A stretch of 64,000 nucleotides of DNA from an uncultured Clostridia bacterium (GTDB lineage: Bacteria > Bacillota > Clostridia > Christensenellales > UBA1242), in NCBI GenBank assembly GCA_947630405.1, contig CANRHL010000001.1, forward strand, positions 20,822 to 84,821, read 5' to 3'. A model generated the notes under the pieces. That model was given only the letters and a program-made list of their open reading frames with translations, ran no database searches and had not been told where the DNA came from. Positions 1-30,779 of this stretch are shown one piece after another. The position numbers and the translations under genes are program-made. The first letter of the stretch is position 1, and every line of letters begins with the position of its first letter.

Positions 1-1
1 G

Positions 2-10
2 TGCTATAAT
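2..10 (+). promoter_or_regulatory. extended -10 element (TGcTATAAT) likely driving the trpS leader
   Basis: tgctataat at 2-10; the -35 would lie outside the window. Confidence 0.4.
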
Positions 11-38
11 AGTTATAACTTAAATAAAAGGAGTATAT

Positions 39-71
39 ATGTTTAATTCATTTATTTGGTGGCGCTGGTAA
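39..71 (+). CDS. 10-aa Trp-rich leader peptide MFNSFIWWRW (candidate trpS attenuation peptide)
   Basis: AAGGAG at 28-33, ATG at 39, TGG codons at 57-59, 60-62 and 66-68, TAA at 69-71. Too short for the ORF track; read directly from the sequence. Confidence 0.6.
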   Translation: MFNSFIWWRW

Positions 72-91
72 TTTTACACTTGCAAAATCGT

Positions 92-125
92 GTGTTTTGT
101 GAGTGTTTTTACGCATCACAAAACA
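92..125 (+). promoter_or_regulatory. leader hairpin whose 3' arm can alternatively pair into the downstream terminator
   Basis: tgttttgtga (93-102) pairs with tcacaaaaca (116-125). acaaaaca (118-125) is also complementary to tgttttgt (174-181) inside the terminator. Confidence 0.5.
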
Positions 126-163
126 TATAAATGGATTTAAATATTTTCAAAATAAATCTTAAG

Positions 164-208
164 CCCGTTGGTATGTTTTGTAGAAAACTTAATCAACGGG
201 TATTTTTT
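164..208 (+). terminator. intrinsic terminator (attenuator) just upstream of the trpS RBS
   Basis: cccgttg (164-170) pairs with caacggg (194-200), with an inner gtttt/aaaac stem, followed by tatttttt. Confidence 0.7.
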
Positions 209-227
209 ATCAAAAAGGAGATTTATT

Positions 228-1217
228 ATGAAAAAAGTTATACTTACTGGTGTTAGACCAAGCGGAAATCTAACACTTGGAAATTATTTGGGTGCAATTA
301 AAAACTTTGTGGACAGGCAAGAGCAATACGATAGTTATATATTTATTGCCGATTTGCACGCAATAACAAGCCCGAAAGACCCACAAAAATTAAAAGAAGC
401 AGTGTATAACTGCGTTGCTATGTATCTTGCGTGTGGTGTTGATCCAAAGAAAACGATTGTTTTTAAGCAAAGCGATGTGCTTGAACATGGAACACTTGGC
501 TTTATTATGACCTTTCAAACAAAAATGGGAGAACTCAGCCGCATGACACAATTCAAGCTGAAATCTCAACAACAAACAAAAGAAGGCGTTGACACAGGAT
601 TATTTGTCTATCCTACTCTTATGGTTGCGGACATACTGCTTTACAACACAAGCATTGTGCCTGTCGGAAAAGACCAACAGCAGCATGTTGAACTTACACG
701 AGATTTGGCAGAAAGATTTAATAAAAGATATGGGCAAACTTTCACTATGCCAGATGTTTATGTTGCGCCTGTGGGCAACAAAATTTTGAATTTGCAAAAT
801 CCACTTGAAAAGATGAACAAATCGGACAGTGGCGATAACAAAGGCACAATATTCTTAATGGACGACATTGAAGTTGCCAAAAAGAAAATTATGTCGGCAA
901 AGACAGACAACCTTGCTCATGTCCATTTTGACGAGGAAAATCAGCCCGGAATTTCAAATTTAATGAGCATTTTGTCAAAAATAACTGACGAGGACTTTGA
1001 AAGCATTGAAAAACGATACGAAGGCAAAGGCTATGGCGAATTTAAGAAAGAGGTTGCCGAAGTGGTTGCAAAGACTTTGGCAGAAATTCAAGCCAAATTC
1101 AAACAATTCAACAACAAAGATATGCTTGACAAAATCCTTTCAAATGGTGCAATAGACGCACAAAAAGTGGCAAGCCAAACATTAAAACGTGCCGCCAACG
1201 CATTAGGATTAAACTAA
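228..1217 (+). CDS. trpS: tryptophan--tRNA ligase
   Basis: MKKVILTGVRPSGNLTLGNYLG (HIGH-like region) and KMNKSDS (KMSKS-like). AAGGAG lies 7 nt upstream of the ATG at 228; the ORF-track start at 168 has no RBS. Confidence 0.95.
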   Translation: MKKVILTGVRPSGNLTLGNYLGAIKNFVDRQEQYDSYIFIADLHAITSPKDPQKLKEAVYNCVAMYLACGVDPKKTIVFKQSDVLEHGTLGFIMTFQTKMGELSRMTQFKLKSQQQTKEGVDTGLFVYPTLMVADILLYNTSIVPVGKDQQQHVELTRDLAERFNKRYGQTFTMPDVYVAPVGNKILNLQNPLEKMNKSDSGDNKGTIFLMDDIEVAKKKIMSAKTDNLAHVHFDEENQPGISNLMSILSKITDEDFESIEKRYEGKGYGEFKKEVAEVVAKTLAEIQAKFKQFNNKDMLDKILSNGAIDAQKVASQTLKRAANALGLN

Positions 1218-1240
1218 AATGGAGAGCAGTTGCTCTCTTC

Positions 1241-1314
1241 GGGCGAATAGTTTAATGGTAGAACAATAGTCTCCAAAACTATTGGCGTCAGTTCGATTCT
1301 GGCTTCGCCTGCCA
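1241..1314 (+). tRNA. tRNA-Trp (anticodon CCA)
   Basis: Cloverleaf: acceptor gggcgaa/ttcgcct, anticodon stem atagt/actat with loop ctCCAaa, T-arm gtcagttcgattctggc, encoded CCA end. Confidence 0.95.
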
Positions 1315-1333
1315 ATTTTTTTGCAAAAAAGTA

Positions 1334-1361
1334 TTGACTTTAAAAAAAAATATGCTAAAAT
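1334..1361 (+). promoter_or_regulatory. sigma-70 type promoter of the ThrRS-like leader
   Basis: TTGACT (1334-1339), 16-nt spacer ending in TGc, TAAAAT (1356-1361). Confidence 0.6.
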
Positions 1362-1383
1362 GTAAGTGTTAAGGAGCAAAACT

Positions 1384-1440
1384 ATGAAAAACGCATTGGT
1401 TTTACAACTTAATATAACCACCACCACCGTATCAAAATAG
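1384..1440 (+). CDS. 18-aa leader peptide MKNALVLQLNITTTTVSK with four consecutive ACC (Thr) codons
   Basis: AAGGAG at 1371-1376, ATG at 1384, ACC x4 at 1417-1428, TAG at 1438-1440. Below the ORF-track size cutoff. Confidence 0.6.
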   Translation: MKNALVLQLNITTTTVSK

Positions 1441-1480
1441 ATATGGTGTTTTGTGTGTGCAAAAAATAAAATAATATAAG

Positions 1481-1511
1481 GCAGCAACAAAACACAAAGT
1501 TGCTGCTTTTT
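1481..1511 (+). terminator. intrinsic terminator 1 of the ThrRS-like leader
   Basis: gcagcaac (1481-1488) pairs with gttgctgc (1499-1506), followed by ttttt. Confidence 0.65.
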
Positions 1512-1527
1512 AAATATTTAGACATTG

Positions 1528-1557
1528 GGCAGCAACTATAAAGGTTGCTGCCTTTTT
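1528..1557 (+). terminator. intrinsic terminator 2 of the ThrRS-like leader (same stem sequence as terminator 1)
   Basis: ggcagcaac (1528-1536) pairs with gttgctgcc (1544-1552), followed by ttttt. Confidence 0.7.
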
Positions 1558-1675
1558 GTTTAGGAGGGATTATGATTAAATTTGTAAAACTTAAAATTAT
1601 CACCCGAAAGGGTTATACTAAAAAATAAAACTAAAAAAAAACAAAAAATAAAAACAAAATAAAAAGGAGATTATT

Positions 1676-3124
1676 ATGGAAAACAAATTATTAAATAGAG
1701 AAGATATAGTTAAAGATATAAAAAAGGACTATTTCTTACTTTTGCCAAATGGCGAAGAAATTGCGTTAGATTTATCTAACAAAGAAGAAGTTTTAAATAA
1801 ACTAAATAAATATGGGTATGAAGAACTTATAGATTATGTAAAAGCGGAAGAATTGCCTGCCGAAGTTAAACCTGAAGCACCTTCCATTAAAGAGATGAAA
1901 AGGTTGGAACTTGCCGACAATGAAAGTGCAAGTGATAGCGGCAATCATAGAATGTACCCTAATGGGCAACTTATGTTCAGTTTAATTAAAGATTGGCAAG
2001 AACGCATTGCTAAATATGATTTAGGTGCAATGGAAATTGGCTCGCCACTTTTCTACAACAAAGCAGATGAGCAAATTTTAGCACAATGTGGCTCTTTTCA
2101 CGAAAGGCATTATTCGGTAAAAGTGCCAGATGACCCCAACAAAGAATTTATTTTGCGTTTTGCTGCCGACTTTGGCTTGTTTAAAATGGTGCAGCAAGCA
2201 AAATTTAGTTATAAGCAACTGCCATTAAGATTTTTTGAATATAGCGAAAATTTTAGATATGAAAAATCTGGCGAACTCTCTGGCTTAAAACGAGATAGAT
2301 TTTTCCATATGGCGGACATACACTGCTTTTGCAAAGATGAAGAACAAGCAATAGTGGAATATAAGGACATATTTAAAAAATATGAAAATTTAAACTCCGG
2401 TATGGGCATTAAATATGCAAATGTTTTGCGAATTGTTGATGTATTTTACAATAAATATAAACAAGACATTTTGGAATTAGTTAAGTACGCCAACCGCCCA
2501 TTGTTCATTGAAAGAATGGATAAAATGAAACATTATTGGGCAATGAAATCTGAGTGGCAATCAATAGATAGTGTACACGGCAACCAACAACTCTCTACTG
2601 TCCAATTTGATGTGAAAGAGGGCAAAGTTTATAACATTGTTTATGCTGACGAGAACGATGAAAAGAAAAATTGTGTAATTGTTCACTCGTCTGTTGGTGC
2701 GGTGGAAAGGTGTATGTATGCAATATTGGAAGAAGCACTTAAACTAGAACGCCCTGTACTTCCGCTATGGCTTTCACCCGTACAATTAAGAATTTTGCCC
2801 GTAAGCAACGAAGCGCACTTGAATTTTTGCGAACAACTAGATTTTGAAGGCATAAGGTTTGACATAGATGATAGAAACGAAAAACTAGGCAAAAAACTTG
2901 TCCGCGCAAGACAAGAGTGGATACCTTATGTTGTGGTTGTTGGGGATAATGAACTAAATGGTGCTAAATTTAAGGTTAATGATAGATTAAACAACCAAGT
3001 TTTAGAGATGAGCAAGGAAGAACTAGAAAACTTTATCTGCGAGCAAATTAAGAAATATCCATATAGGCCATTAGCATTGTCTAAATATTTAAGTAAACGC
3101 CCTTCATTCTATGGTGCGCTATAA
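1676..3124 (+). CDS. class IIa aminoacyl-tRNA synthetase, ThrRS-like catalytic core plus anticodon-binding domain, without the long N-terminal TGS/editing region
   Basis: Motif 2-like FRYEKSGELSGLKRDRFFHMADIHCFC; motif 3-like GAVERCMYAILEEA. C-terminal LPLWLSPVQLRILPV...DDRNEKLGKKLVRARQEWIPYVVVVGDNE resembles the ThrRS anticodon-binding domain. Only 482 aa. Confidence 0.75.
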   Translation: MENKLLNREDIVKDIKKDYFLLLPNGEEIALDLSNKEEVLNKLNKYGYEELIDYVKAEELPAEVKPEAPSIKEMKRLELADNESASDSGNHRMYPNGQLMFSLIKDWQERIAKYDLGAMEIGSPLFYNKADEQILAQCGSFHERHYSVKVPDDPNKEFILRFAADFGLFKMVQQAKFSYKQLPLRFFEYSENFRYEKSGELSGLKRDRFFHMADIHCFCKDEEQAIVEYKDIFKKYENLNSGMGIKYANVLRIVDVFYNKYKQDILELVKYANRPLFIERMDKMKHYWAMKSEWQSIDSVHGNQQLSTVQFDVKEGKVYNIVYADENDEKKNCVIVHSSVGAVERCMYAILEEALKLERPVLPLWLSPVQLRILPVSNEAHLNFCEQLDFEGIRFDIDDRNEKLGKKLVRARQEWIPYVVVVGDNELNGAKFKVNDRLNNQVLEMSKEELENFICEQIKKYPYRPLALSKYLSKRPSFYGAL

Positions 3125-3190
3125 AAAACCCTTTTCTACCCTATTTTTTACGAAAATTGCCAAAAATTAGAAAAATGTTCGATAAATCAC

Positions 3191-3219
3191 TTGACTTTTT
3201 CGAACAAATGTTCGATAAT
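3191..3219 (+). promoter_or_regulatory. promoter of the Com-like gene
   Basis: TTGACT (3191-3196), 17-nt spacer, GATAAT (3214-3219). Confidence 0.6.
3201..3214. promoter_or_regulatory. LexA (Cheo/SOS) box CGAACAAATGTTCG inside the promoter spacer
   Basis: Perfect CGAAC-N4-GTTCG palindrome. aaatgttcgataa is repeated at 3173-3185 and 3206-3218. Confidence 0.7.
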
Positions 3220-3318
3220 ATGAGTGATGATAGATATAAATATTCTTTAAGTTAGCCCCAGATAATGTAAAAGAAAAGAAAGTATTAAATGTCATCAAAC
3301 GCAAAAAGGAGGCGAAAA

Positions 3319-3516
3319 ATGCGTAAAGAATTTCGTTGCCCTTATTGTAATAAATTGGTGGGCATAACAAAAGAAGACGGAAAATCTATTGTAAAAGTGC
3401 TGCGGCGCGCACCAAGGAACAAATCTAACAATGAAACTATTTTCGAGAACAAATGTCCAAAGTGCAATAACCTAGTATATTTGCAATTTAGATTTTTACA
3501 AAACACAGGAACTTAA
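3319..3516 (+). CDS. small zinc-ribbon protein, Mu Com-like (RCPYCNKL ... KCPKCN)
   Basis: AAGGAGG RBS then ATG at 3319. Two CxxC pairs with the RCxxCNKL / KCPKC pattern I associate with Com-family proteins. Confidence 0.6.
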   Translation: MRKEFRCPYCNKLVGITKEDGKSIVKVLRRAPRNKSNNETIFENKCPKCNNLVYLQFRFLQNTGT

Positions 3517-3555
3517 AAAAGTTCATTTAGTTTAGGGGTCAAAGAATCCCATAGA

Positions 3556-3633
3556 GGCCATAATTAGAGCCCAACTGCTGTCATAGAACGGCAAATTAAA
3601 ACTTGTTTGGGAATTATGGTCTTTTTCTTTTTT
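3556..3633 (+). terminator. long-stem intrinsic terminator downstream of the Com-like gene
   Basis: ggccataatt (3556-3565) pairs with aattatggtc (3612-3621), with inner cccaa/ttggg, followed by tttttctttttt. Confidence 0.65.
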
Positions 3634-3810
3634 ATAAGACATAATTTGGCAAGATAAGTGGAATTTCTTAACTACAACACCTAGTAAAGGTGTTGTAAAA
3701 TTTTGGTGTAAGTTGTGGTAATTTACTCTCATTGAAAGAAAAAGGGGGAATTGCTATTAGACACCAACAAGAAATCATTATCTACCAATACTTTAATCTA
3801 TTTGAAAAGA

Positions 3811-3857
3811 CCTAATTTCAAATGGGGTTTACCCCGCCTTTTGAGATTAGGTTTTTT
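3811..3857 (+). terminator. strong intrinsic terminator within the ICE leader region
   Basis: 12-bp stem cctaatttcaaa / tttgagattagg enclosing gggg-ttta-cccc, followed by tttttt. Confidence 0.7.
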
Positions 3858-3895
3858 AATTGCCATATCCTAAAAAGTTTTTAAAAAAATTTTTT

Positions 3896-3920
3896 AATTG
3901 TAACAGGCATTGTTACAATT
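3896..3920. promoter_or_regulatory. perfect 10-bp inverted repeat (candidate operator) overlapping an extended -10
   Basis: aattgtaaca-ggcat-tgttacaatt. The right arm contains TGtTACAAT, upstream of the HTH gene. Confidence 0.5.
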
Positions 3921-3967
3921 AGCCCACTAAAATGTGGACTAGAAACTGATAAAAGGAGGTGATTGTA

Positions 3968-4306
3968 GTGCGAAGCAGATTTATACAAGACGCTATTCTT
4001 TCAATTCTGCAAGATGGCAAATTGCATAAAATGAAAGATTTGTGCGATGAACTTAATATCTGTCGAATGACGTGCGTAAGGCATATCAACGATTTGTCTT
4101 TGTACTACAATATCCAAACTTTTGTCGGTGGCAGCAAAGCAGGTGTAAGGTTGCTAGATAAGAAAATAGATATTACATATTTACAAGACAATGATCTGCA
4201 ACTCATTGTCGAGCAACTTGGGCGGTTGCAGAGCCCAAATCCAAATATCTCTAAATTTATTAGAAACCTTAACCGCTTTCTAAAAGGAGAGAAAAATGGA
4301 TTATGA
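3968..4306 (+). CDS. winged-helix/HTH DNA-binding regulator
   Basis: HKMKDLCDELNICRMTCVRHINDL HTH-like segment. GTG at 3968 sits 8 nt after AGGAGG; the track start at 3959 overlaps the RBS. Confidence 0.6.
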   Translation: MRSRFIQDAILSILQDGKLHKMKDLCDELNICRMTCVRHINDLSLYYNIQTFVGGSKAGVRLLDKKIDITYLQDNDLQLIVEQLGRLQSPNPNISKFIRNLNRFLKGEKNGL

Positions 4307-4805
4307 GAATTTAAACAATGAAACTCTAAACGATGATGACGAAATTGTGCTTATTGACTATTACGATAGAATACATCAGCAAATGATACACGGATTGCCC
4401 GTTACGAAAAAAGTTGCCAGATTTATGGAAAACAATAAAAAGAAAACTAGAAGAAAACAAAACGATTATGACTACTACACTAGGCCGCTAGAAAAATTTG
4501 ATGAAGAAGACCCAGACAAAATGCAATACTTTATTGATGAAAATTCGGACATTGAAAAGAATTTAGAATTGGCGGAACGAGAAAAATTGGAAGAATTGGA
4601 TAAAGAACACAAAACAACCATAATTGAAAACGCAATGATTGCCCTAACCCCAGAGCAGCAAGAAGTTGTGATTATGGCATACTACAAAAAAATGAGTTAT
4701 AGCGAAATTGCAAAAGAGTTGGGCATTAAAAAACCCTCCGTTTATGAACGAATGCACAACGCGGTGAAAAACATACGAAAATTTGTCGAAAATGGTCAAA
4801 ATTAA
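4296..4805 (+). CDS. sigma-70 region-4 type regulator (sigma-like HTH)
   Basis: C-terminal LTPEQQEVVIMAYYKKMSYSEIAKELGIKKPSVYERMHNAVKNIRKF. Confidence 0.7.
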   Translation: MDYENLNNETLNDDDEIVLIDYYDRIHQQMIHGLPVTKKVARFMENNKKKTRRKQNDYDYYTRPLEKFDEEDPDKMQYFIDENSDIEKNLELAEREKLEELDKEHKTTIIENAMIALTPEQQEVVIMAYYKKMSYSEIAKELGIKKPSVYERMHNAVKNIRKFVENGQN

Positions 4806-4956
4806 AAAATTTTCAACTTTTTTTCAAAAATTTTCTTAAAAATACCCTAACGATTTGCAATTTTATGTCCTCATAGATATAGAGGGGTCAAACAATTTTT
4901 GAAATTCTGGTTGGTGCGCACAACCAAAACTTTCAATAAAAATTTAAGGAGAAATA

Positions 4957-5397
4957 ATGAAAGAACATTACACAGTTAGAATTTATGACAAGCAACTGTC
5001 GGACAAAGTTGAAGGCCTATATAATAAATGTAAAGATTTATATTCTAGTCAAAATCCATTTTTAGTGGATTGCATTAGCAGGGGTGCGGAACTTATAGAA
5101 CACGATTTAGTTGGCGAGAATAAGAAAAACACAATTGCTTCCTTATATGATGAAATTCATTTAACTGTTAGGAAATTGGACAATCTTTTAAAACTTTGTG
5201 AAAAGAGTGCAAAAGAAACGATTGCCAACTTGTCAATCAATCAAAAACTTTTGTCTTGCAATTACAATATGCTTTTAGGATTGTCGGAAAACAACCCAAA
5301 ACCTAAAAACTTTATTGAAAATGGTATGTTTGATGATTTGCCAGAAAGATTAGGCGAATTATTGGAAGATATACTTAAACAAATTTTAGGGAAATGA
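4957..5397 (+). CDS. hypothetical protein, possible relaxosome accessory factor (by position only)
   Basis: Good RBS; its stop overlaps the relaxase start (ATGA at 5394-5397). Confidence 0.5.
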   Translation: MKEHYTVRIYDKQLSDKVEGLYNKCKDLYSSQNPFLVDCISRGAELIEHDLVGENKKNTIASLYDEIHLTVRKLDNLLKLCEKSAKETIANLSINQKLLSCNYNMLLGLSENNPKPKNFIENGMFDDLPERLGELLEDILKQILGK

Positions 5398-6584
5398 GTG
5401 TTCCTAATGTAAACTTTTTCATTGGATATGTGGATAGTTTAAAAGGGAAAAGCAGCGCAGATGAATATGTAAAGAATAATTTTGAAGCAAGACGATTTTA
5501 CAGCTCTGGTAAAGATTATGATTATGTTAAGTATGTAGCCACAGGTAGCAAAGAAAAACTTGATTATATTGCCTATTCTGGGAACAATGAGAAAAGCCAC
5601 GGAATATTTAACCCTAATGGGTTAATGTCGGCACAAGATATAAAAGAATTACGCAATAAATTAAGGAAAACTGCTAGTCCTATATGGCACGGTGTTATTT
5701 CGTTTACGGAAGATTTTGGAAATCAATTTTGCGACAATTATGAGAAAGCTTATGAGCTTATGAGAACTGAATTCCCTAAATTTTTTAAGGCGGCAGGACT
5801 AAACCCAGACAATATTGAGTGGTTTGCAGGTTTACACGAGAACACGGACAACAAGCATATACATTTTTCTTTCTTTGAAAAGACCCCTTTAAGAAAGAAA
5901 CAAAATAGTAAAAAATTATGCTATTCAAATGGATTTATAGTGCAAAAAGCAATAAATGATTTTAAAGTTAAGGTAGAATTGCGCCTTAAAAACTACACAA
6001 ACGATATTTCAATAGCAAGAAAAAGTATAACACGGACAACTGAAAAATTATTAAACACAGGAGATTATATGGAGAAATTAAAATCTCTAATCATTATTCT
6101 ACCCCGCAAAGGTAGAATGAGTTATGATAGCAAAAATATGCAAGAATATAGACCATATATAGATAGTATTATAAACACTATAATTAAAGCAAATAAGAAC
6201 TTAAAATACAAGTTTGACAATTTCTATGACCTATTGGGCAAAAGGGACAATCAAATTATTCAGGCATACACAAAATTAAAAATAGATTACACGGACAAAC
6301 TTATGCGAGATAAATGTATTAAAGACATTTATAGGCGTTTGGGCAACCTAGTTTTGTTTATGGCAAAAGAAATTCGAGCCGAGCAAGCAAAACTTGATAC
6401 CAACACAAGAAACCGCCTTTTACAAAAACGCATAGACAAGTTAAAGAGAAAAGCACTAATTAAAAAATGTATGCAATTAAATGACCTTGTTGACCAAGAA
6501 ATTATGAACGCATTTAAGGAATATTTGGACAAACTTGATGAAGCCAACTATAACCGATTAAAGGAAGAAGGGTTAATAGATTGA
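5394..6584 (+). CDS. conjugative relaxase (MobL/MOB-P-like, histidine triad)
   Basis: WHGVISF and LHENTDNKHIHFSF (HxxxxxxHxH metal motif); Tyr-rich N-terminus DYDYVKYV / LDYIAY. Confidence 0.7.
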   Translation: MSVPNVNFFIGYVDSLKGKSSADEYVKNNFEARRFYSSGKDYDYVKYVATGSKEKLDYIAYSGNNEKSHGIFNPNGLMSAQDIKELRNKLRKTASPIWHGVISFTEDFGNQFCDNYEKAYELMRTEFPKFFKAAGLNPDNIEWFAGLHENTDNKHIHFSFFEKTPLRKKQNSKKLCYSNGFIVQKAINDFKVKVELRLKNYTNDISIARKSITRTTEKLLNTGDYMEKLKSLIIILPRKGRMSYDSKNMQEYRPYIDSIINTIIKANKNLKYKFDNFYDLLGKRDNQIIQAYTKLKIDYTDKLMRDKCIKDIYRRLGNLVLFMAKEIRAEQAKLDTNTRNRLLQKRIDKLKRKALIKKCMQLNDLVDQEIMNAFKEYLDKLDEANYNRLKEEGLID

Positions 6585-8746
6585 AATTAGGTAAAAGGAT
6601 TATCTTAATTCTTATAACCTTATTTGCTTGTTATATATGTGGTTATTTATTAAATTTATTTGTTTCTAACAATTTTGTTTTTGAATTTAAAATATCTGTG
6701 GACTTAATGTTGGCAGGCAAAACCCTACTCTACACCTTTGAATTGTTTGCGGTATTTGCGGTTATTTACTTATTCATTTGGTTTAAAGGAATTGGCAAAA
6801 ACCCTAAAAAGATTTTGCAAGCAAATGAAAAGGATAAAGACATTTTCACAGGATTAGAACAAGCACATTTTCAAACAGATAAAGAAATTCAAAACAATTT
6901 TAGAACGATAGATTACGAAAATCTACCCAACGCAAAAATTGAAGGTATTGCAATTAAGACGGAAGAAACCAACAAAGGATACAAAGTTACATTTGCTAAC
7001 CCTGCCCACACTTTGATAATAGGAACAACGGGCTCTGGTAAAACAACCACCTTTATAAACCCAACCATACAAATATTGGCAAATACCTTTAATCAACCTT
7101 CTATGATTATTTCAGACCCAAAAGGGGAATTGTATGCGCTACACTCTAAAAGTTTGATAAAACGCGGATACGATGTAAGAATATTGGATTTAAGAAACCC
7201 TTATTGCTCATTAAGGTGGAATCCGTTAGAACACCCTTATGACCTATACCAAGAAATGCTAACTTTAAATGATAAAGTTATTTTGAACGAAGAAGAAGGT
7301 TATTTCATATTTGAAGGCAAGATTTATTACAGCGAAGAAGAAAAGAACGCTGCGGTGCAGGTGCGACAACAAGAAATCTTTGATGAAGTGTACGAAGATT
7401 TAAACGATATTTGTTCGGTGCTTTGCCCTATTAAAAATAAATCCGAGCCAATATGGGAAAGTGGTAGTAAAAACTTTATTTTGGCAATAGCACTTGCTAT
7501 GTTGGAAGATAGCGAAAACCCTAGTTTGGGTATGACAAGAGAAAAATTCAATTTCTACAACATAATGAAAATTGCCACTAACACGCAAAACGATTGTGAA
7601 GATTTAATGGCGTACTTTAAAAATAGAAGCCCAATTTCTAAAAGTGTTAGTTTGTCTAAACAAGTTTTAGACGCTAGTGATAAAACGCGCGGCTCATATC
7701 TATCTACAATCTTTGATAAATTGTCAATGTTTAGTGATATGAGTATTTGTTCGCTAACAAGTGCAAACGAAATAGATTTTAGCGAATTGCCAAATAAACC
7801 AACTGCCCTATTTTTGCAAATACCAGATGAAAAAGAAACACGCCATACACTTGCTGCTATGGTTATATTGCAAGCATATAAGGCACTTGTAGCAAAGGCA
7901 AACACCTATGCCGATTTAACTTTGCCGCGTAGTGTTTACTTTTTGTTAGACGAATTTGGTAACCTACCTAAAATTCACAAACTAGAACAAATGATTACGG
8001 TTGGCAGAAGCAGAAAAATATGGTTGGCGTTAGTTGTTCAATCTTATGCACAACTTGCAAAAGTTTATGATGACAAAACTGCCGACATTATAAAATCCAA
8101 CTGCAATATTCAAGTATTTATTGGTACAACTGACCTTAAAACAATAGAAGAATTTTCTAAAAAGTGTGGAAATTACTCTATTATGCAACGAAATGTAAGC
8201 TTTTCTTCTTCTAACGATAATGTTGGAAGTTCGGTAAGCATTAAGGAAAGACCACTAATCTACCCAACCGAATTGCAACAACTAAATAGCCCAGACAATA
8301 TGGGCAATGCAATAGTTAATGTATTTGGTTATCCACCAATTAAAAGCAAATATACACCAAGTTTTAAATGCAAACACTTCAACTTGGAAAAGACCAATCA
8401 ATTACTTTCGGAGGGCAAATATTTTAACGAAAAGAAAGTTTTATACAATATGCTAGACCGAAATGAGATTATCCTTTCAAATAAAGCAGGTGTGCCAATG
8501 CCAGATTTAGCACCATTTATTGAAAGTTTAATAATTCAAATTGAAAAACTAGATTTTGAAAGTTTAGGTTGCTTTGAATTAAAAATGGAAATGCTTAATG
8601 CGGTGGAAAAGAAAGATTTTAATAGATTAAGTAATATAGCAATTAAACTAGAAACCATTGCAAAAAACAGAAATAGCGAGGACTTTGCATTTGTTAAAAA
8701 CTTATGCGTAAAAGTTCAGCAGCTAAAAAGGTTGGCACGACAATGA
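6581..8746 (+). CDS. type IV coupling protein (VirD4/TraG family)
   Basis: N-terminal TM helices; Walker A GTTGSGKTT; Walker B YFLLDEFGNL; VVQSYAQL. Confidence 0.9.
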   Translation: MKLGKRIILILITLFACYICGYLLNLFVSNNFVFEFKISVDLMLAGKTLLYTFELFAVFAVIYLFIWFKGIGKNPKKILQANEKDKDIFTGLEQAHFQTDKEIQNNFRTIDYENLPNAKIEGIAIKTEETNKGYKVTFANPAHTLIIGTTGSGKTTTFINPTIQILANTFNQPSMIISDPKGELYALHSKSLIKRGYDVRILDLRNPYCSLRWNPLEHPYDLYQEMLTLNDKVILNEEEGYFIFEGKIYYSEEEKNAAVQVRQQEIFDEVYEDLNDICSVLCPIKNKSEPIWESGSKNFILAIALAMLEDSENPSLGMTREKFNFYNIMKIATNTQNDCEDLMAYFKNRSPISKSVSLSKQVLDASDKTRGSYLSTIFDKLSMFSDMSICSLTSANEIDFSELPNKPTALFLQIPDEKETRHTLAAMVILQAYKALVAKANTYADLTLPRSVYFLLDEFGNLPKIHKLEQMITVGRSRKIWLALVVQSYAQLAKVYDDKTADIIKSNCNIQVFIGTTDLKTIEEFSKKCGNYSIMQRNVSFSSSNDNVGSSVSIKERPLIYPTELQQLNSPDNMGNAIVNVFGYPPIKSKYTPSFKCKHFNLEKTNQLLSEGKYFNEKKVLYNMLDRNEIILSNKAGVPMPDLAPFIESLIIQIEKLDFESLGCFELKMEMLNAVEKKDFNRLSNIAIKLETIAKNRNSEDFAFVKNLCVKVQQLKRLARQ

Positions 8747-11700
8747 AAAAAACAAAATCTAAAAATATTTTAACAATTTTAATATTTTCTGTTTGCTTAT
8801 TCATTTCAATAGCACTTGCTTGTAGTGGATTGGTTAGCAGTGGCGGAAAATCTAATATGGGAGTTATAAGCCCATTTGTCGATGGCACTGTAATTATCCC
8901 AGATAATTCACTTGTGCATTGGGAATCCCCAGATTATAGCAATGCGAATTTAGAGCCAGACACCCCATATTCAAATGGTGTTTTAAGGCGGTATTTGTTT
9001 CTAGGAATTTACAATCAAGTAAGAAATGAAACCGTAAGCGGATTTCACTTCCCGCAATTTGTAAGATATTTCGAAGTGGCAAGAGTTGATGGTAGATACA
9101 TTTACGATGATGATGGTATTTTAGACACCAATTCTAGTGAAGAAGTTGTAAACTACCCTTCAATGCTTTATTCAACTGAAAGCACTTTGCCCGTTAAGAA
9201 AGACGCAGGCCCATTTTGGACAGACCATCAACCAAGTTTTAAAAACGGAGATTTGGAAGTAAACTTTTACTCCAACTCGACATCTTCGACATTCTATTAT
9301 GGCGTGCCGCGCGACCCTTCAAACAATTTTCACTCAATTTGCTACATAATAGATAAAGATTGTAAACCTTATATATCCAATCCAACAAAATTCAATGTAT
9401 ATCTAAACGCCACAGGGCAATACACCAACACTTTTTGGGGGAACACAAGTGGCAGTTATGGTATGAATTTTAATATGACCTATGACATTTCTATGGCAGC
9501 AAGAGATTGGAACAACTCGTTAAAGGCAAGTACGCCAAGCGGAACATATAAAGGCAAAACAATCTATTACTCACCGAAAGAATTTACTGCTATTGCAACA
9601 AACTTGAACAATTTATTGAAAATTAACGATGTTCAAATTGACCCGCTTTATGGAACTACTGTTGTGCCATTTAAAGATGGACACCACATAACCATAACCG
9701 ATGTTGGCATTACAAAGGTTGATTTGGAAAATGGCAGCGAGAACAACTACACTACCTATTATTGTATGATAGACAATAAATTGCCAGATGTTTCTTACAA
9801 CTATTCAAACACAAATGCCCTAGATTTAAGGAAAATAAGTTCAATCACAACTGAAAGCAGTGGTGCTAAAACACAAACAATCTATGAAGGCATTTTTAAA
9901 GACCAAGTACAAGTAAATTTTGGTGCGAACGAAGATGAAAGCCCAGAAACCGCCACCTACACTTTAAATGGCGAAACACACAACTTAACAAGCGGCACTT
10001 GGTTAAAACAGGAAGGCAGTTATGTTGTTACAATTAAAGATAGCGCAGGCAACACAACCATAAGCAAGTTTGATATAGATTGCACTAACCCATTTGCAAA
10101 CCTAAACCGAGTTAAAAATGATAATAACTATAAGGTTGCTAAATGGTATTTAACAACTATACCTAACGGATATAGCGGATATGGCACTTATTCGTTTTTA
10201 GAACGAGCAGACGCTTTAAATTACGCTTGCGAAATTGAAAAGCAAAATTTAGTTACAGAATATAATTTGGAACGAGTGGAAGATTTCGCCAACACGCACT
10301 TACTTGCAAAAGGAAATAGTGTTAAAGTTGGCAAGTATTGGTATTATAAATCAATAGACAATGACCAATTTTATGTTTATTACTTTGATGAGAACTCACT
10401 TAACCAAGCAATTCAACATTATGCTGAAAAGTTTGTTTCGGTGGAACATAAATATAATATCAATTCTTCATTAACACCAAATAACTATGGCAATATACTA
10501 GATAAAAGTATATATGACAATGTTGTTTCAAAAAATGGCATAAATGCTTATATGGGCAATAACTTTGTGTTTAGAACGGATAGCAATATGGAAAGTTATA
10601 AAATATATTGCGACTATGCCGAAGATAGCACCGAAGATTATAAGGAACTACAATACAACAAAGTTTTTTCAACCCAAGTTAATGGGTATGGACTTTACAA
10701 AATAAAGGAAATAGATTTTGTTGGACACGAAAGTTATTACTATCTATTTTTAGATAATCAGGCACCAATGCTAGACATTGAAGCAAAAATTTATGGCAAA
10801 GATAAGCTTATAAACCAATCTATATCCGTAAATGATATACCTAACAATGGCGAGCTTATCTATTATTATGAGAGTTTTAAAATAGCACAAGTTATAGAAG
10901 ATGATAAATGGTGGATTATGGAGATTAAAACACCAAAAGACACCGTTTTAAGATACACCTATTTAGATGAGTTGCCAAACTTTGGCAATCTCGGTGCAGG
11001 CGAATATTCAATTACAATAGCGGATAGAAATTCAAACAAATTTAATTTCAAAATATCCCTATTAGGAAAAGCACCAGAGGCAGTATTTCAAAACATAAAT
11101 GCCAACACTCAATTAAGGATAGATATTAAATGCAGCGAAGATTACAATTCTATAACCGAAATTAAGATTTATAGAAATGGAATTTGCTTAAATGCTGAAA
11201 ATGGATATGATGAATACCCTAATTTAGAAAATGATTTAATATTTATCAACCCATCTATCAAAACCTACACTTTTAACAAAGGCGGCACATACAAAGTTGA
11301 ATTGACCGACATATTTGGAAGAAGCATAACTTATGAATATAAGTTTGAAAAGGATTTGCCTGTTGGGGATTTAATTGGTGTTAAGCACAATGGCAAAACG
11401 AATAGCGAAGTTAGATTTACTTATAACTCATCAAAATATTATGTTGTTATAGAAAAGAATAGCGGTGTTTATACACCAGAAGAAAGCGAAAGTAACTTTA
11501 TCAAAACACTTATCTTTACGCCGAACGAAAATTTACAAGATTTTTATTCAATTAAGCTTATAGATAACACCGACCCAGAGAACTACAATATTTACAACTT
11601 TACAATCAAAACCATTAAACCTATCATCAATCTATTTGGAGTTGACCCTAATGGTACAACAGGCGGAAGTGTGTACGCACTATGGGATAGTGGCGAAGAA

Positions 11701-13119
11701 ATTTATTCTGCCACCTATTCACTAAATGGCAACACACAAGAATATAGAAAAGGACAAACTTTAACAATTGAAGGCAATTACACAATTACTTTAACTGATG
11801 AATTAGGAAATTCCACAACAATACAATTTGAAATAGACAAAAGCATTAACTTTGTTATTGCAGACCTTGATGGTAAAACTTATGAAATAGAAGATTTGGA
11901 CTATATCAATTTTGATATTAAAATAGTAAATAACGAGCCACTAAATGTAACCATTACAAAAAATGGCAATCCTTATGATTATGAATTTGGTTTAATGATT
12001 AGCGAAGAAGGATATTATGAAATTGTCCTTACTGACGAGTTTAACAACTCAATTTACTTTTACTTTACAATTGACAAAACACCACCATCCGCCACACTTT
12101 ATGGCGTAGAAGAATTTGGCAAAACGAATAAATCCGCTTGGGTTGTTTCAAATGACACCAATTTAACTTGTTGGTATGTTGTCAATGAAGCTTATAGAGA
12201 TAGTTATAAGCTTGGCGAAGAACTCACTAAAAGTGGTAAATATGTTGTCTATGTTGCAGATAGAGCAAACAATTTTGTTAGCTTTGAATTTCAAATAGAC
12301 AAAGAAATTGCGTTTGATATAAACACTTATCGAGGCGGAATTTCAAATGGCGGCGTGCGAATTATTGCTTATGAGAATTTAAAAATTTATATGGCAAAAG
12401 ATGAGCAAATGATAGATTATCAATTCGAACAAATTTTAAATGATGAGGGTGAATATTCATTTACAATAACAGACGAACTAGGAAATATGTATTCTAGTTA
12501 TTTCACAATAATAAACAAAGCAAAACAAAATTTACAACACTTGTTACAGGAAGACATTTCTATTAAATCAATTTCAAAAGACAATGAAACTTATGAGTAT
12601 GAACTTTTAGAAAATTCACTTTATCTTTATGATGAAGGCAAATACCTTATTTCAATTATAGACAACAAAACCAATAACGAATATTCATTTGAAATCACAC
12701 TTGATACTACCCCACCAACACTAGAAATTTTTGGTGTTGAAAATGGCGGCAAAACAAAAAATGTTGTTGTTTTGAAAAATGTATCGGAAACACCTTACGA
12801 ACTTATAATCTATGTTGATGGAGTTAGATTTGACTACAAACTTGGAGATAAAATTGAAAAATCTGGCAAGTTTGAAATTACACTAAAAGACGAAGCAGGC
12901 AACACAACCACTTACTCTTTTGAACGAGAATACTCATTCAATGCAGCAAGCATAGCAGTGTTTGTTGGACTTGGTGTTTTAGTTATTTTATTGATTATCT
13001 TGCTAATAAAATCTAGGCATCATTACTACAAAGAAAAGATTACGGAAGAAGAAATCAAAGAAACTTTGATTGATGATGATATAGACAGCAATGATAGCGA
13101 AAATACTGAAAATCAATAG
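8743..13119 (+). CDS. large surface protein / putative mating adhesin with Ig-like repeats
   Basis: ATG at 8743 overlaps the T4CP stop (ATGA). Signal peptide ...FISIALA|CSG. About eleven repeats of G-Y-(I/V)T(L/I)-D-GN-...F-(I/L)D by my count. C-terminal TM helix plus acidic tail, no LPxTG. Confidence 0.75.
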   Translation: MKKTKSKNILTILIFSVCLFISIALACSGLVSSGGKSNMGVISPFVDGTVIIPDNSLVHWESPDYSNANLEPDTPYSNGVLRRYLFLGIYNQVRNETVSGFHFPQFVRYFEVARVDGRYIYDDDGILDTNSSEEVVNYPSMLYSTESTLPVKKDAGPFWTDHQPSFKNGDLEVNFYSNSTSSTFYYGVPRDPSNNFHSICYIIDKDCKPYISNPTKFNVYLNATGQYTNTFWGNTSGSYGMNFNMTYDISMAARDWNNSLKASTPSGTYKGKTIYYSPKEFTAIATNLNNLLKINDVQIDPLYGTTVVPFKDGHHITITDVGITKVDLENGSENNYTTYYCMIDNKLPDVSYNYSNTNALDLRKISSITTESSGAKTQTIYEGIFKDQVQVNFGANEDESPETATYTLNGETHNLTSGTWLKQEGSYVVTIKDSAGNTTISKFDIDCTNPFANLNRVKNDNNYKVAKWYLTTIPNGYSGYGTYSFLERADALNYACEIEKQNLVTEYNLERVEDFANTHLLAKGNSVKVGKYWYYKSIDNDQFYVYYFDENSLNQAIQHYAEKFVSVEHKYNINSSLTPNNYGNILDKSIYDNVVSKNGINAYMGNNFVFRTDSNMESYKIYCDYAEDSTEDYKELQYNKVFSTQVNGYGLYKIKEIDFVGHESYYYLFLDNQAPMLDIEAKIYGKDKLINQSISVNDIPNNGELIYYYESFKIAQVIEDDKWWIMEIKTPKDTVLRYTYLDELPNFGNLGAGEYSITIADRNSNKFNFKISLLGKAPEAVFQNINANTQLRIDIKCSEDYNSITEIKIYRNGICLNAENGYDEYPNLENDLIFINPSIKTYTFNKGGTYKVELTDIFGRSITYEYKFEKDLPVGDLIGVKHNGKTNSEVRFTYNSSKYYVVIEKNSGVYTPEESESNFIKTLIFTPNENLQDFYSIKLIDNTDPENYNIYNFTIKTIKPIINLFGVDPNGTTGGSVYALWDSGEEIYSATYSLNGNTQEYRKGQTLTIEGNYTITLTDELGNSTTIQFEIDKSINFVIADLDGKTYEIEDLDYINFDIKIVNNEPLNVTITKNGNPYDYEFGLMISEEGYYEIVLTDEFNNSIYFYFTIDKTPPSATLYGVEEFGKTNKSAWVVSNDTNLTCWYVVNEAYRDSYKLGEELTKSGKYVVYVADRANNFVSFEFQIDKEIAFDINTYRGGISNGGVRIIAYENLKIYMAKDEQMIDYQFEQILNDEGEYSFTITDELGNMYSSYFTIINKAKQNLQHLLQEDISIKSISKDNETYEYELLENSLYLYDEGKYLISIIDNKTNNEYSFEITLDTTPPTLEIFGVENGGKTKNVVVLKNVSETPYELIIYVDGVRFDYKLGDKIEKSGKFEITLKDEAGNTTTYSFEREYSFNAASIAVFVGLGVLVILLIILLIKSRHHYYKEKITEEEIKETLIDDDIDSNDSENTENQ

Positions 13120-21323: not shown

Positions 21324-24300
21324 ATGACAGAACAAGCAGTTGCAAATGATTTAATTGAAAACATATTGGACAACACAATTTATCTTGCTAACTTTTTTAA
21401 GTTTAGAGTAAACAATCCCGCTTTTAATTTCGCACAAGCAATGCAAATAATAACTCGCAACCCACACGCAAGCATTTGCAAATCATTTGATGAGTGGAAC
21501 GCGCTAAATAGAAGAATTATTCGAAATTCAAAAGCACTTACATTTATTGATGAAAATAACCCTAGCAAGAAACGATATGTTTTTGATATAGACCAAACTT
21601 ATGGCGTGGATTATCCGCCAAAGACCTATCCTATGGACAATCATTTAGTTGCTGAAATAGACCAAATAAATGACATAGAAAGTGAAAACACAACAAACAA
21701 TTATTACAATCTTTTAGATGTTATTAACCAATTCAATGCTGAAAATGGTTATACAAAAGAAAATAAAACTGAAAACCAATATCTAAATAGATTTATTGCA
21801 ATTTATCTAAACGCGACATTTGTAAATTCAATAAAAGTGCCAGCGGAAGTGGATTTTGAAGAACTTGACACTAATAAAAAAATAGATTTATGCGAAGAAG
21901 CGGAAGAAATTGCAAAAGAAATTACAAATTCAATTTTACAAATAAGGAGAGAAAATGAAAAATCAAAATTACAATCCAATAGAGAAAGCTCAACAATTAG
22001 ACCGATACGGTATAATGGCATTGAACTATCTAAAAACAACTCGACAGAACAAATATCTATACTTGATGATGACGGAAACTTTGTTAGATTATTTGTTGAA
22101 GATACAAACTCAATGCAACCAAATGCAACAGAGATTGTTAAGGAAATTCCGCAAGAATATGAAACCAACATTGAATTATATGGAGAGATTACACCTAGAA
22201 CAAATGAATTACGAGATAGCGGAAGAATTGATAACCCACAAGATAATTTACAATATCTAAACTATAAACTAACTGAAAAAGATTTTGAAAAAATTGGCGG
22301 CGCAAAAACTAAATATAAAGATAATGTTGCGGCAATAAAACTTGTTAGACAACTAGATGAAGAAAACCGCAATCCAACGCAAGAAGAACAGGCAATTCTA
22401 GCCAAGTATGTTGGTTGGGGTGGAATTCCGCAAGTTTTTGATGAAAATAATGAGAATTGGCAAAAAGAATATGCCGAACTCAAAGAACTTTTATCCACGA
22501 AACAATATGAACTTGCGAAAAGCTCTACCCTAACCGCCCATTTTACTAGCAAAACAATCATTGATGGAATTTACAATGCGTTATCTAATATGGGATTTAC
22601 AAAAGGCACTATTTTAGAGCCCGCAGCAGGAACAGGCAACTTTATTGGACTTGTGCCAGATAGTTTTGATAAAACAAAAATTTCTGGCGTGGAAATTGAT
22701 GAGATAACAGGCAAAATTGCAAAATATCTTTATCCACAATCTAACATACAAATTACAGGGTTTGAAAACACAAACTTTAAAGACAATCAATTTGATAGCG
22801 TTATAACCAATGTGCCTTTTGGTGCTTATAAGGTTTACGATAGAGATTATGATAAATTTAATTTCTTTATCCACGATTACTTTATTGCTAAATCAATAGA
22901 TAAAATTAAACCAAATGGAATTTGTGCGGTTATTACTTCAAAAGGGACAATGGACAAACTTTCTAGCAGTTTTAGAAAGTATGTTGCTGACCGCGCTGAA
23001 TTGCTTGGTGCTATTCGCTTGCCAAACAACGCTTTTAAAGAGAACGCAGGAACGGAAGTTACGGCGGACATTTTGTTCTTCAAAAAGCGTGGAACAATGA
23101 TAGATAGCCAAGATAGTTGGATTTATGTAGGCAAAAATGAAAATGATATACCGCTAAACGAATATTTTATTGACCACCCAGAAATGGTGCTTGGAACAAT
23201 GAAACAAGGTGCAAGTATGTATGGTGGTGCTGATGAAACTTATTGCGAAGCTGACGATAGACCACTAGACATTGCCCTATCACAAGCAATAGCGAACTTG
23301 CCAAAGGAAATATACCAAGCACAAGTTGTTGTTGAAGAAGAAAAAAACGAAGATGTTTTGCCCGCAGATTATAACATTAGAAACTATTGCTATTCAATGA
23401 AAAATGACAAAGTGTATATGCGTGTTGATGACCAAATGATTTTACAAAACATTGCCAAAACAAATATAGATAGATTTAGGCGAATGATTGAAATAAGAGA
23501 TAAGGTTAGGTTTATTTTACAAAGGCAAATAGATAATTGTAGTGATGATGAATTGTTGCACGAGCAAACGAACTTAAACACTCTTTATGACAATTTTGTT
23601 AAAAAGTATGGATACTTAAATAGTAAACATAATAGAAATTTGTTTAGGCAAGACGCGGATTACCCTTTGCTTATTTCACTAGAAAACTATGATGAACACA
23701 ACAAAACCGCAACTAAAACCGACATATTTAGTAAACGCACAATAAGAATACACGAACGAGTTAAAACCGCAAATGATGCCCAAGAAGCATTGCAAATAAG
23801 CAAAAACGAGTTGGGCAAAGTGGATTTAAGATATATTGAACAACTTACAGGGTTAGATTATGACACTGTGGTAGAAAATTTAAAGAACTCTATATTTAAA
23901 AATCCACTTGCGGAAACTTTTAACACAGAAGAAGATATTAAATATGTTGGTTGGGAAACCGCCGATGAATATTTAAGCGGAAATGTTAAGCAAAAGTTAA
24001 GAATTGCAAAAAGGGCTGCACAAGACAATCCAATGTACAATGTAAATGTTGAAGCATTGGAAGAAACGCAACCAGAAGATATCCCGGCAAGTGATATTTC
24101 GGTTAGATTGGGTGCAACTTGGATTGACAAAAAGTATTACGAGCAATTTTTAGGGGAAAAGTTTAAAGTTAATAATTATTATAGAGATGAAATAAAGGTT
24201 GAATATAATAGATTTGATGGGAGTTGGGCAATTTCTGCACCTTCGTGGATTAAATCAAACATAGAATCCACGAGTATTTATGGAACTAATAGAATGAACG

Positions 24301-30569: not shown

Positions 30570-30779
30570 ATGAAAAGTTATGAATTATGCAAATGTATGT
30601 TTACTGAATATCCAGATTGCGTTGGTGTGCAAGAACTTATGCAAATGTTGGGTATAAAGAAAACAAAAACTTATGAATTGCTACAAAGTGGAGAAATAAA
30701 AGCAAAAAAGATTGGAAAAGATTATAAAATTTCAAAAGTAAATGTTATTGCCTACATAATTGGAGAAGAACAATTATGA
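30570..30779 (+). CDS. xis: excisionase-family HTH DNA-binding protein
   Basis: 69 aa, VGVQELMQMLGIKKTKTYELLQSGEIKAKKIG; its stop overlaps the int start (ATGA). Confidence 0.75.
   Translation: MKSYELCKCMFTEYPDCVGVQELMQMLGIKKTKTYELLQSGEIKAKKIGKDYKISKVNVIAYIIGEEQL

Follow-up and report, generated by a model that had tools for sequence, protein, structure and literature searches.

The DNA analysed here is a stretch of 64,000 nucleotides (64 kb; the window) from an uncultured Clostridia bacterium, and the element in question is the leader of thrS, a predicted gene for a threonyl-tRNA synthetase (ThrRS). We put the probability at roughly 85% that this leader is a ribosome-mediated (leader-peptide) attenuator, which would sense charged tRNA-Thr and control the ThrRS gene, as judged from sequence comparison and RNA modelling. 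A preliminary description of the region had proposed a Thr-codon leader attenuator with twin terminators on a ThrRS-like gene. This proposal is borne out by a conserved leader open reading frame (ORF), covarying hairpins, a switch in ribosome-masked folding and the lack of a T-box in the sequences searched. More surprising than the attenuator is the synthetase itself, which is almost free of threonine. The features of the leader, all on the plus strand, are the following.

1334-1361, plus strand: sigma-70-type promoter (TTGACT 1334-1339, 16 nt, TAAAAT 1356-1361)
1366-1415, plus strand: possible 5'-terminal hairpin around the Shine-Dalgarno (SD) sequence and AUG of mini-ORF1, part of the minimum free energy (MFE) fold; tentative
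1371-1376, plus strand: SD sequence AAGGAG of mini-ORF1, 7 nt before the ATG
1384-1440, plus strand: leader mini-ORF1, MKNALVLQLNITTTTVSK and stop; ATG at 1384, 18 codons, UAG at 1438
1417-1428, plus strand: putative regulatory codons, four consecutive ACC (Thr) within mini-ORF1
1419-1459, plus strand: hairpin 1:2, core 1425-1433 with 1440-1448, -16.5 kcal/mol
1446-1454, plus strand: segment 2, antiterminator 5' strand (GUGUUUUGU), 100% complementary to 1487-1495
1478-1512, plus strand: terminator 1 (T1), AAGGCAGCAAC / GUUGCUGCUUU and U-run, -14.3 kcal/mol
1487-1495, plus strand: segment 3, antiterminator 3' strand (ACAAAACAC), the last bases of the T1 5' arm and the loop
1498-1537, plus strand: relay helix (T1 3' arm and T2 5' arm), an alternative to both terminators, -14.8 kcal/mol
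1527-1561, plus strand: terminator 2 (T2), GGGCAGCAACU / GGUUGCUGCCU and UUUUUGUUU, -18.5 kcal/mol
1562-1567 and 1572-1628, plus strand: strong SD sequence AGGAGG, directly after the T2 U-run, and mini-ORF2, MIKFVKLKIITRKGYTKK and stop (MIKFVKLKIITRKG..)
1602-1613, plus strand: small hairpin ACCC-GAAA-GGGU in mini-ORF2, 4 bp with a tetraloop
1629-1662, plus strand: A-rich spacer, largely unstructured
1663-1668 and 1676-3124, plus strand: SD sequence AAGGAG and thrS, 482 residues, archaeal-type ThrRS core and anticodon-binding domain

The promoter, the SD sequence, the mini-ORF, the four ACC codons, the complementarities and the twin terminators were all found, base for base, where the preliminary description had placed them. 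The promoter matches at 10 of 12 positions, carries a TG at 1353-1354 (extended -10, TGcTAAAAT) and ranks first among the promoter-like sites in 1-4000; in relatives a promoter of the form TTGAC(A/T)...TA(T/A)A(A/C)T is present at the same position. As expected for an attenuator, mini-ORF1 is a short promoter-proximal ORF with its own SD sequence and start codon, its four ACC codons form a cognate-codon cluster ahead of a ThrRS gene, and the intrinsic terminators T1 and T2 lie between the leader ORF and the structural gene. The folding of the whole leader was compared with that of shuffled sequences, giving z = -7.1 for 1362-1680 and z = -6.2 for 1384-1565, and none of 100 or 200 shuffles matched it. 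A window-wide scan for intergenic, SD-preceded mini-ORFs with a run of a single amino acid returned the trpS and thrS leaders only. Since the scan returned these two leaders alone, and mini-ORF, hairpins and terminators recur before the orthologous gene in independent assemblies, the arrangement is beyond chance.

Four RNA segments could take part in the regulation. Hairpin 1:2, which makes the leader a four-segment attenuator, was absent from the preliminary description. In this hairpin the Thr codons (CACCGUAUC) pair with the post-stop sequence GAUAUGGUG (GGUG, GUGUGUG), with the stop codon in the loop; UUUUGUGUGU comes right after it and the hairpin was flagged as terminator-like. Its stem occurs in compensatory variants (GUAUC/GAUAU to AUAUU/AAUAU to UUAUU/AAUAA). 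Hairpin 1:2 is likely a pause or anti-antiterminator element; if it works like its counterpart in the trp leader, pausing there may keep ribosome and polymerase in step. Segment 2 (GTGTTTTGT) is complementary to 1487-1495 at all 9 nt, and the resulting 2:3 duplex has a predicted energy of -14.9 kcal/mol. The stem pattern of the terminators, GCAGCAAC-N(3-15)-GTTGCTGC, has only two matches in the 64 kb (1481-1506 and 1529-1551) and none in 100 shuffles, and each of these two same-stem hairpins is followed by a T-run. A genome-dispersed repeat as the origin of the stem was rejected, as there are just two copies in the window. The idea that the identical stems allow the 3' arm of T1 to pair with the 5' arm of T2 held up as well: 1498-1506 and 1529-1537 are 100% complementary, and this pairing is conserved.

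To represent a ribosome on the leader, nucleotides P-14 to P+15 around its P site were masked and the transcript through the end of T1 was folded under this constraint. With the mask at P sites 1414-1423, which places ACC in the A site, the MFE structure contains the pairing of 1446-1454 with 1487-1495 and no T1. With a ribosome at the stop codon T1 forms, and without a ribosome both hairpin 1:2 and T1 form. In silico, the leader has an antiterminator that depends on the position of the ribosome and is mutually exclusive with T1, as in an attenuator. A stall on the ACC run had been predicted to free 1446-1454, and masked folding indeed switches T1 off for the ACC-run position only. The same description had a terminating ribosome cover 1446-1454, which applies only in part: with the P site at 1435 the ribosome reaches to about 1450 and covers only about half of the segment.

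Covariation was assessed in an alignment of 16 loci. The terminated structure, composed of hairpin 1:2, T1, T2 and the small hairpin in mini-ORF2, is paired in 89.4% of the alignment cells and 18 of its 41 pairs change on both sides. None of 500 shuffles reached any of the five measures used, and slid controls paired in 33-53%. The antiterminated structure is also paired in 89.4% of cells. Considered separately, T1 and the relay helix each pair in 90.6% of cells with 5 pairs changed on both sides, T2 in 95% with 6 such pairs, the 2:3 helix in 88%, and the mini-ORF2 hairpin in 100% with one A-U to G-C change. For the tentative hairpin at 1366-1415 the values were 75% and 5 pairs (slid controls, 34-50%); this hairpin could conceivably modulate leader translation or stabilise the RNA.

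The stems of T1 and T2 change in concert, from GGCAGCAAC to GACGGCAAC in locus L005, to GA(C/T)(G/A)GUAAC in L007 and to GCAGCG in L020. In L020, T1 is without a U-tract and T2 is the sole possible terminator, so that the relay pairing is the only path from mini-ORF1 to T2. Three loci (L015, L024 and L099) have one terminator each, which argues that the twin-terminator arrangement is derived. The complementarity of segments 2 and 3 is retained in L015 despite a different terminator stem.

The arrangement is kept before the same gene in more than 20 metagenomic loci, with ThrRS identities from 98% down to about 56%. Eleven genome loci were found at 84-98% identity, and additional contigs extend to about 56%. 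The relatives were binned as uncultured Clostridia, Eubacteriales or Christensenella and come from animal guts. In the core clade, wherever upstream sequence exists, the order is promoter, SD sequence, 17-18-codon ORF (..LNITTT(T/A)xxx), hairpin, GGTGTTTTGTG, terminator(s), mini-ORF2, A-rich spacer and thrS. The order of ORF, hairpin and terminator was observed in L001-L003, L005-L012, L014, L015, L020, L021, L099 and L102, and a looser form of the arrangement in L016/L018/L023, L022, L024, L025, L100 and L101. Segment 2 (GGTGTTTTGTG) is near-invariant across the 16 aligned loci and the SD sequence of mini-ORF1 (TTAAGGAG) is kept in nearly all loci. Conservation of the mini-ORF had been proposed as a check, and the ORF withstood it: in 15 core-clade loci mini-ORF1 has 17-18 codons, a variable N-terminus and a conserved ..LNITTT(T/A).. 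part. The relatives' leaders contain 2-6 Thr codons, with six in L015. Leader peptides of the core and distant clades are, for example:

L005, core clade: MKNAIVLQLNITTTTILF
L008, core clade: MKQFIISKLNRTTTTVSK
L012, core clade: MKNSVSLQLNITTTTLLF
L015, core clade: MKKLVCIINITTTTTTYR
L020, core clade: MKLLNAYKLNTTTTILI
L099, core clade: MKNIINSKLNITTTTYHSC
L022, distant clade: ..VITTTTINS..
L024, distant clade: ..FTTATTTAT.., in a genome of 47% GC
L025 and L101, distant clade: ..KTTTTT(T)A
L016 and L100, distant clade: ..NITT(V/T)..

In L024 an analogous pairing, GGCGUUUUG / CAAAACGC, reaches into the terminator. Both thrS and its leader are part of the chromosome, and the genome is Firmicute-like and low in GC (about 34%); in one clade spo0A adjoins thrS. 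No annotated relative turned up among plasmid and phage records, where the blastn matches of 1-3200 were confined to the tRNA and a trpS fragment. Different loci have different genes ahead of the leader (HD-domain, TfoX and others), which indicates that the leader belongs to thrS and travels with it.

These observations also bear on the possibility that the hairpins are constitutive terminators or insulators of the upstream trpS-tRNA-Trp unit, with small ORFs that arose by chance. The region does lie directly 3' of tRNA-Trp and many small ORFs arise in AT-rich DNA. However, a strong promoter is located between the tRNA and the ORF, the leader stays with thrS when the upstream genes differ, and ORF length, Thr run and hairpins are conserved with compensatory changes, all of which makes an insulator very unlikely.

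What has been observed are the elements themselves, the way in which they are conserved and covary, and the switch in silico; from these we infer how stalling, kinetics, relay and physiological logic of an attenuator might work together. Transcription would start about 7 nt past the -10 box, and a ribosome would translate the 18-codon mini-ORF1. When Thr-tRNA is plentiful, the ribosome would proceed to the UAG at 1438, which hairpin 1:2 holds in its loop, and dissociate; segment 2 (GGUGUUUUGUG), at first covered by the ribosome, would next pair with the ACC codons to form hairpin 1:2. T1 would form, and transcripts that escape it would meet T2, which would reduce basal expression once more. 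If Thr-tRNA runs short, the ribosome would stall with ACC in the A site and cover the 5' arm of hairpin 1:2. The free segment 2 would pair with ACAAAACAC, at the end of the T1 5' arm and in the loop, and the orphaned 3' arm of T1 would capture the 5' arm of T2 before the 3' arm of T2 is made. In this way T2 would be blocked kinetically too, and the polymerase would read into thrS. The second terminator would square down basal read-through, and the relay would let the induced state pass both terminators.

Several findings weigh against this mechanism. Even when a ribosome is stalled, T2 is present in the equilibrium fold and is the most stable element, for which reason the relay is workable only kinetically, and full read-through would rest on a kinetic argument. 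The earlier claim that cross-pairing abolishes both terminators is in this respect only partly upheld: the pairing is conserved, but the relay at -14.8 kcal/mol is weaker than T2 at -18.5 kcal/mol and could provide a kinetic block only. The identical stems of T1 and T2 could also stem from a recent duplication rather than from selection for cross-pairing. Moreover, the 2:3 helix is almost invariant and displays little covariation, with 1 pair changed on both sides. The leader of L021 has just two Thr codons (NITAATILN), and in the clades at 56-61% identity the structures farther downstream differ, some of these clades (L025, L101) showing no clear terminator with a U-tract.

Locus L014 bears on the codon specificity of the putative attenuator. 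Here (L014, 514-3587) tyrS lies 65 nt after thrS and the leader is MKKFMSLQLNSTYYTVTF (..NSTYYTVTF), with Tyr codons replacing two Thr codons. The spacer between thrS and tyrS contains a promoter-like TTGATT-N16-TATAAT, and co-transcription of the two genes is likely but not certain. Judged from its sequence, this mixed Thr/Tyr leader may be regarded as a natural experiment that supports codon specificity.

We then turn to the enzyme that would be regulated. The thrS product has a class II core (PF00587) and an HGTP anticodon-binding domain (PF03129) according to Pfam, and it is without an N-terminal editing domain. It scored 418.9 bits with PRK03991 (archaeal-type ThrRS), against a cutoff of 484 and over model positions 150-612, and 287.8 bits with TIGR00418, against a cutoff of 383.65; these below-cutoff equivalog scores likely result from the missing N-terminal part. 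Its best solved relatives are ThrRS in every case. H216, H337 and T308 align with H385, H511 and T482 of E. coli ThrRS, which we take to be active-site residues. The position aligned to E. coli C334, presumably a Zn ligand, is Asp in 120 of 120 homologues, normal full-length archaeal ones included. The archaeal type, the absent editing domain and the low threonine content of the ThrRS had not been mentioned in the preliminary description.

A single Thr codon (T308) is present among the 482 codons of thrS, where about 25 would be expected from the 5.2% Thr of the window's other genes. In a comparison of 114 homologues, 77 proved to contain 0-3 Thr (0-2 in most of them), and all 77 are about 475 aa long and without the editing domain. 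The other 37, full-length archaeal enzymes among them, have 9-31. Where most of the normal homologues carry Thr, the purged enzymes have Ser, Val or Lys instead, and the sole threonine retained in the latter is that of the active site (QLSTVQ(F/L)D), which is Ser in six proteins. The low-Thr enzymes come from gut Clostridia-type bacteria and from assemblies labelled DPANN archaea. In public records such ThrRS are annotated as 'hypothetical' or 'aminoacyl-tRNA ligase-related'. No description of a threonine-free ThrRS was found in the literature, the coverage of which was incomplete, so that this is weak evidence of novelty.

The leader goes together with this type of enzyme. By reading of the upstream sequences, a Thr-rich leader ORF was found at 7 of 9 low-Thr metagenome loci, and L021, with its two Thr codons, is the eighth. 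A script rule alone (at least 4 Thr in 6) detected a leader in 5 of 8 low-Thr loci compared to 1 of 68 normal-Thr loci. When L095 is re-assigned to the low-Thr group, 0 of 67 normal-Thr genes have a leader, and Fisher's test on the re-assigned counts gives p = 1.6e-8. The most economical reading is that the low-Thr ThrRS is built for synthesis when Thr-tRNA is scarce, the condition that would open the attenuator. Since it contains a single Thr residue, this editing-domain-less ThrRS would barely depend on scarce Thr-tRNA for its own synthesis. Attenuator and Thr-purged ThrRS may together form a two-part 'starvation-proof synthetase', for which no description was found: a large clade would have lost its threonines, and in its bacterial members a Thr-codon leader would switch the enzyme on under just this shortage. 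The same idea would be realised on trpS and perhaps on tyrS, with the twin terminators as a relay through which one ribosome decision disables both; we hold this wider proposal tentatively, at a little under even odds.

Alternatively, the mini-ORF could sense translation speed or coupling in general, like the bmrCD or erm-type leaders; read-through would then follow whenever ribosomes slow down, and the Thr run would be incidental. A stall anywhere in codons 11-16 would trigger the architecture, hairpin 1:2 with its U-run could just enforce transcription-translation coupling, and the leader of L021 has only 2 Thr codons. We nevertheless regard a general sensor as improbable: the Thr run is retained in every clade despite large sequence change, Tyr codons are gained exactly where tyrS joins thrS, the adjacent trpS carries a Trp leader, and the leader correlates with Thr-free ThrRS genes.

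Mini-ORF2 lies inside the interval covered by the preliminary description, which did not mention it. Members of the core clade share its core, [KR][LI][KR]-I-I-T-R-K-G; mini-ORF2 also holds an invariant ACC codon, and its two Ile codons show third-position changes only, which is a coding signature. The clade at 59-61% identity has a different ORF2 (..F(L/F)SSEIT(C/F)..). The loop of the mini-ORF2 hairpin is GAAA, GUAA, GCAA, UUCG, CAAG or AGCA, in L014 within a compensated GCCC-AGCA-GGGC, and loop changes go with peptide changes (IITPRG, FTLRG, LTAQQG). It seems that the RNA and the peptide are both under constraint. Positions 1582-1604 of mini-ORF2 are 78% identical to 1400-1422 of mini-ORF1, and a second repeat has the same 182-nt spacing; on this sequence similarity, mini-ORF2 may be a degenerate duplicate of mini-ORF1. 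As to its role, we can only guess that ribosome reloading protects or stabilises the 230-nt leader; a second Thr-dependent pause is another candidate. In relatives, 31-61 nt separate the stop codon of ORF2 from the AUG of thrS.

Alternatively, mini-ORF1, mini-ORF2 or both could encode functional micro-proteins that are co-expressed with thrS. The conservation of ORF2 at the peptide level, with Ile-Ile codons that change at third positions only, would fit such a role. For ORF1, however, the N-terminal half is free to vary while length and Thr run are fixed, and the terminators separate it from everything downstream. The ORF2 peptide differs by clade (IITRKG, FTLRG, LTAQQG, SSEITC), whereas its position and single ACC codon persist. 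Functional micro-proteins are in our view extremely unlikely.

Searches for known RNA elements were consistent with an attenuator. No T-box was matched at E <= 10 in 1-5000, and none at the gathering threshold in the window and nine loci (136 kb). Rfam searches at E <= 10 gave noise apart from tRNA and no riboswitch. RF00506 Thr_leader matched 1393-1516 with 18.2 bits and E = 6.3, below its gathering threshold of 55; the leader is analogous to this family and not a member of it. A better-fitting riboswitch or T-box model, which had been named as an outcome that would speak against the attenuator, was not found in these searches. Translational attenuation, in which mini-ORF2 or T2 would mask the ribosome binding site (RBS) of thrS, was rejected; the unpaired probability of the SD sequence ranges from 0.14 to 0.96 across loci, patternless.

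The same data bear on control by a trans-acting factor, which could be ThrRS itself, uncharged tRNA acting through a T-box-like element that escaped recognition, or a small molecule bound by a riboswitch. ThrRS autoregulation in E. coli and the T-box in Bacillus are known solutions for thrS (PMC2965389 and general knowledge), and the conserved ACCC-GNRA-GGGU hairpin in ORF2 is without an assigned role. On the other side, there is no Rfam match at E <= 10 other than the sub-threshold Thr_leader, no T-box in the 136 kb of window and loci, and no specifier loop, T-box sequence or anticodon-like 7-nt loop. In addition, the thrS RBS is not consistently structured, and the four-segment attenuator fully accounts for the conserved segments. 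The chance of a trans-acting factor is very small.

Upstream of the thrS leader, and likewise on the plus strand, lies a second synthetase unit.

39-71, plus strand: Trp leader MFNSFIWWRW
228-1217, plus strand: trpS (TIGR00233, 349 bits)
1241-1314, plus strand: tRNA-Trp

The Trp leader and the downstream RNA segments (39-215) are conserved in L102-L104 (MFNSFIWWRW, MLYSFIWWRK and MFSSFIWWRKI). The TrpRS of the window is without Trp, as are 117 of 120 homologues. When the trpS leader is folded at equilibrium with ribosome masks, its terminator does not switch, and the logic of this leader seems to need a five-segment kinetic chain. The TyrRS of L014 has 5 Tyr in 420 residues (1.2%) compared to 4.4-5.5% in neighbouring genes, and tyrS may follow the pattern of cognate-residue avoidance and leader. 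No further tyrS or trpS was found by tblastn in 102 loci. A lineage-wide replacement of T-boxes by leader peptides on aminoacyl-tRNA synthetase (aaRS) genes, as suggested before, agrees with the findings on thrS and trpS (leader conserved), with the suggestive case of tyrS (L014) and with the lack of a T-box in the 136 kb; the evidence covers these genes only. A paralogous origin of the trpS and thrS leaders is unsupported: they share 14 nt, GTGTTTTGTG(A/T)GTG (91-104 and 1446-1459), and 26 of 300 shuffles score equally. GGTGTTTTGTG was rejected as a marker of further attenuators in the window, its other matches (52964, 59099) being unrelated.

Directly downstream of thrS, at about 3200-32400, the window contains an apparent integrative mobile or conjugative element, and further features were noted there.

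4296-4805: sigma-70 region 4 protein, in the apparent mobile element
5394-6584: MobL relaxase, in the apparent mobile element
8704-13119 and 21324-27095: very large ORFs, in the apparent mobile element
30776-32035: tyrosine integrase, adjoining tRNA-Arg
32321-32397, minus strand: tRNA-Arg

The chromosomal genes that follow the element include dnaA (39366-40712, minus strand) and dnaN (41174-42343, plus strand), which are divergent and not in the usual tandem; their 460-nt spacer may hold a replication origin. At 56342-57784 a 480-aa ORF with collagen triple-helix repeats has a local GC content of 43.5% compared to about 34%.

T-box control of aaRS genes is the textbook rule for Firmicutes, and here an uncultured gut Clostridia-type group would use a proteobacterial mechanism. 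An old logical problem is addressed, namely that making more synthetase requires the missing aminoacyl-tRNA, and the enzyme provides an extreme natural case of cognate-residue avoidance. Testable features are added by the identical-stem terminators that would pass on antitermination, the second conserved upstream ORF and the single-threonine ThrRS. Annotation misses both parts, as the low-Thr ThrRS is poorly named and the leaders are invisible to Rfam.

Compared with known systems, the leader resembles the trp, his, thr, leu and ilv attenuators of E. coli and Salmonella in its SD-preceded short ORF with a cognate-codon run, in its segments 1:2, 2:3 and 3:4 with a Rho-independent terminator, and in a stop codon placed for masking of segment 2. 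It differs from these amino-acid-operon attenuators in that it has no sequence or covariance-model homology to them, targets an aaRS and not a biosynthetic operon, is found in a low-GC Clostridia-type host, and has two same-stem terminators and a second mini-ORF. The thrS gene of E. coli is controlled by a translational operator, in which ThrRS binds a tRNA-Thr-like leader. Both are cis-acting leaders that would regulate thrS; unlike the operator, the leader described here would act on transcription, has no anticodon-arm mimic and precedes a thrS RBS that is not consistently structured. A tRNA-Thr-like operator was not found at the thrS RBS, upstream of which the sequence is A-rich and the only conserved hairpin has a 4-nt loop. 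With the T-box of thrS/thrZ in Bacillus subtilis and other Firmicutes (PMC2965389 and general knowledge) the leader would share the tRNA-Thr charging signal and the read-through of a leader terminator before thrS, but its sensor would be the translating ribosome and not tRNA-RNA binding.

Leader peptides of aaRS genes are known or predicted for pheST (pheM) in gamma-proteobacteria, for trpS and leuS in Streptomyces (PMC1262725) and for hisS paralogues in Bacilli (PMC2965389), and the Streptomyces paper stated that classical attenuation was not known for any aaRS of Firmicutes (PMC1262725). As in these cases, a leader ORF rich in the enzyme's own codon and a terminator/antiterminator would govern the aaRS gene. 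The differences are the amino acid threonine, the lineage, the tandem terminators with a relay and an enzyme that is nearly free of its cognate residue. No case of a thrS leader peptide was found in the literature, which given its incomplete coverage is weak evidence of novelty. The enzyme is comparable to the crenarchaeal split ThrRS, where ThrRS-cat is apart from the editing protein, in its archaeal-type core and anticodon-binding domain without an N-terminal editing domain; unlike the crenarchaeal enzyme, it is bacterial and purged of almost all Thr. Taken together, the mechanism is of a known kind, and what is new is the gene (thrS), the lineage and the twin-terminator design.

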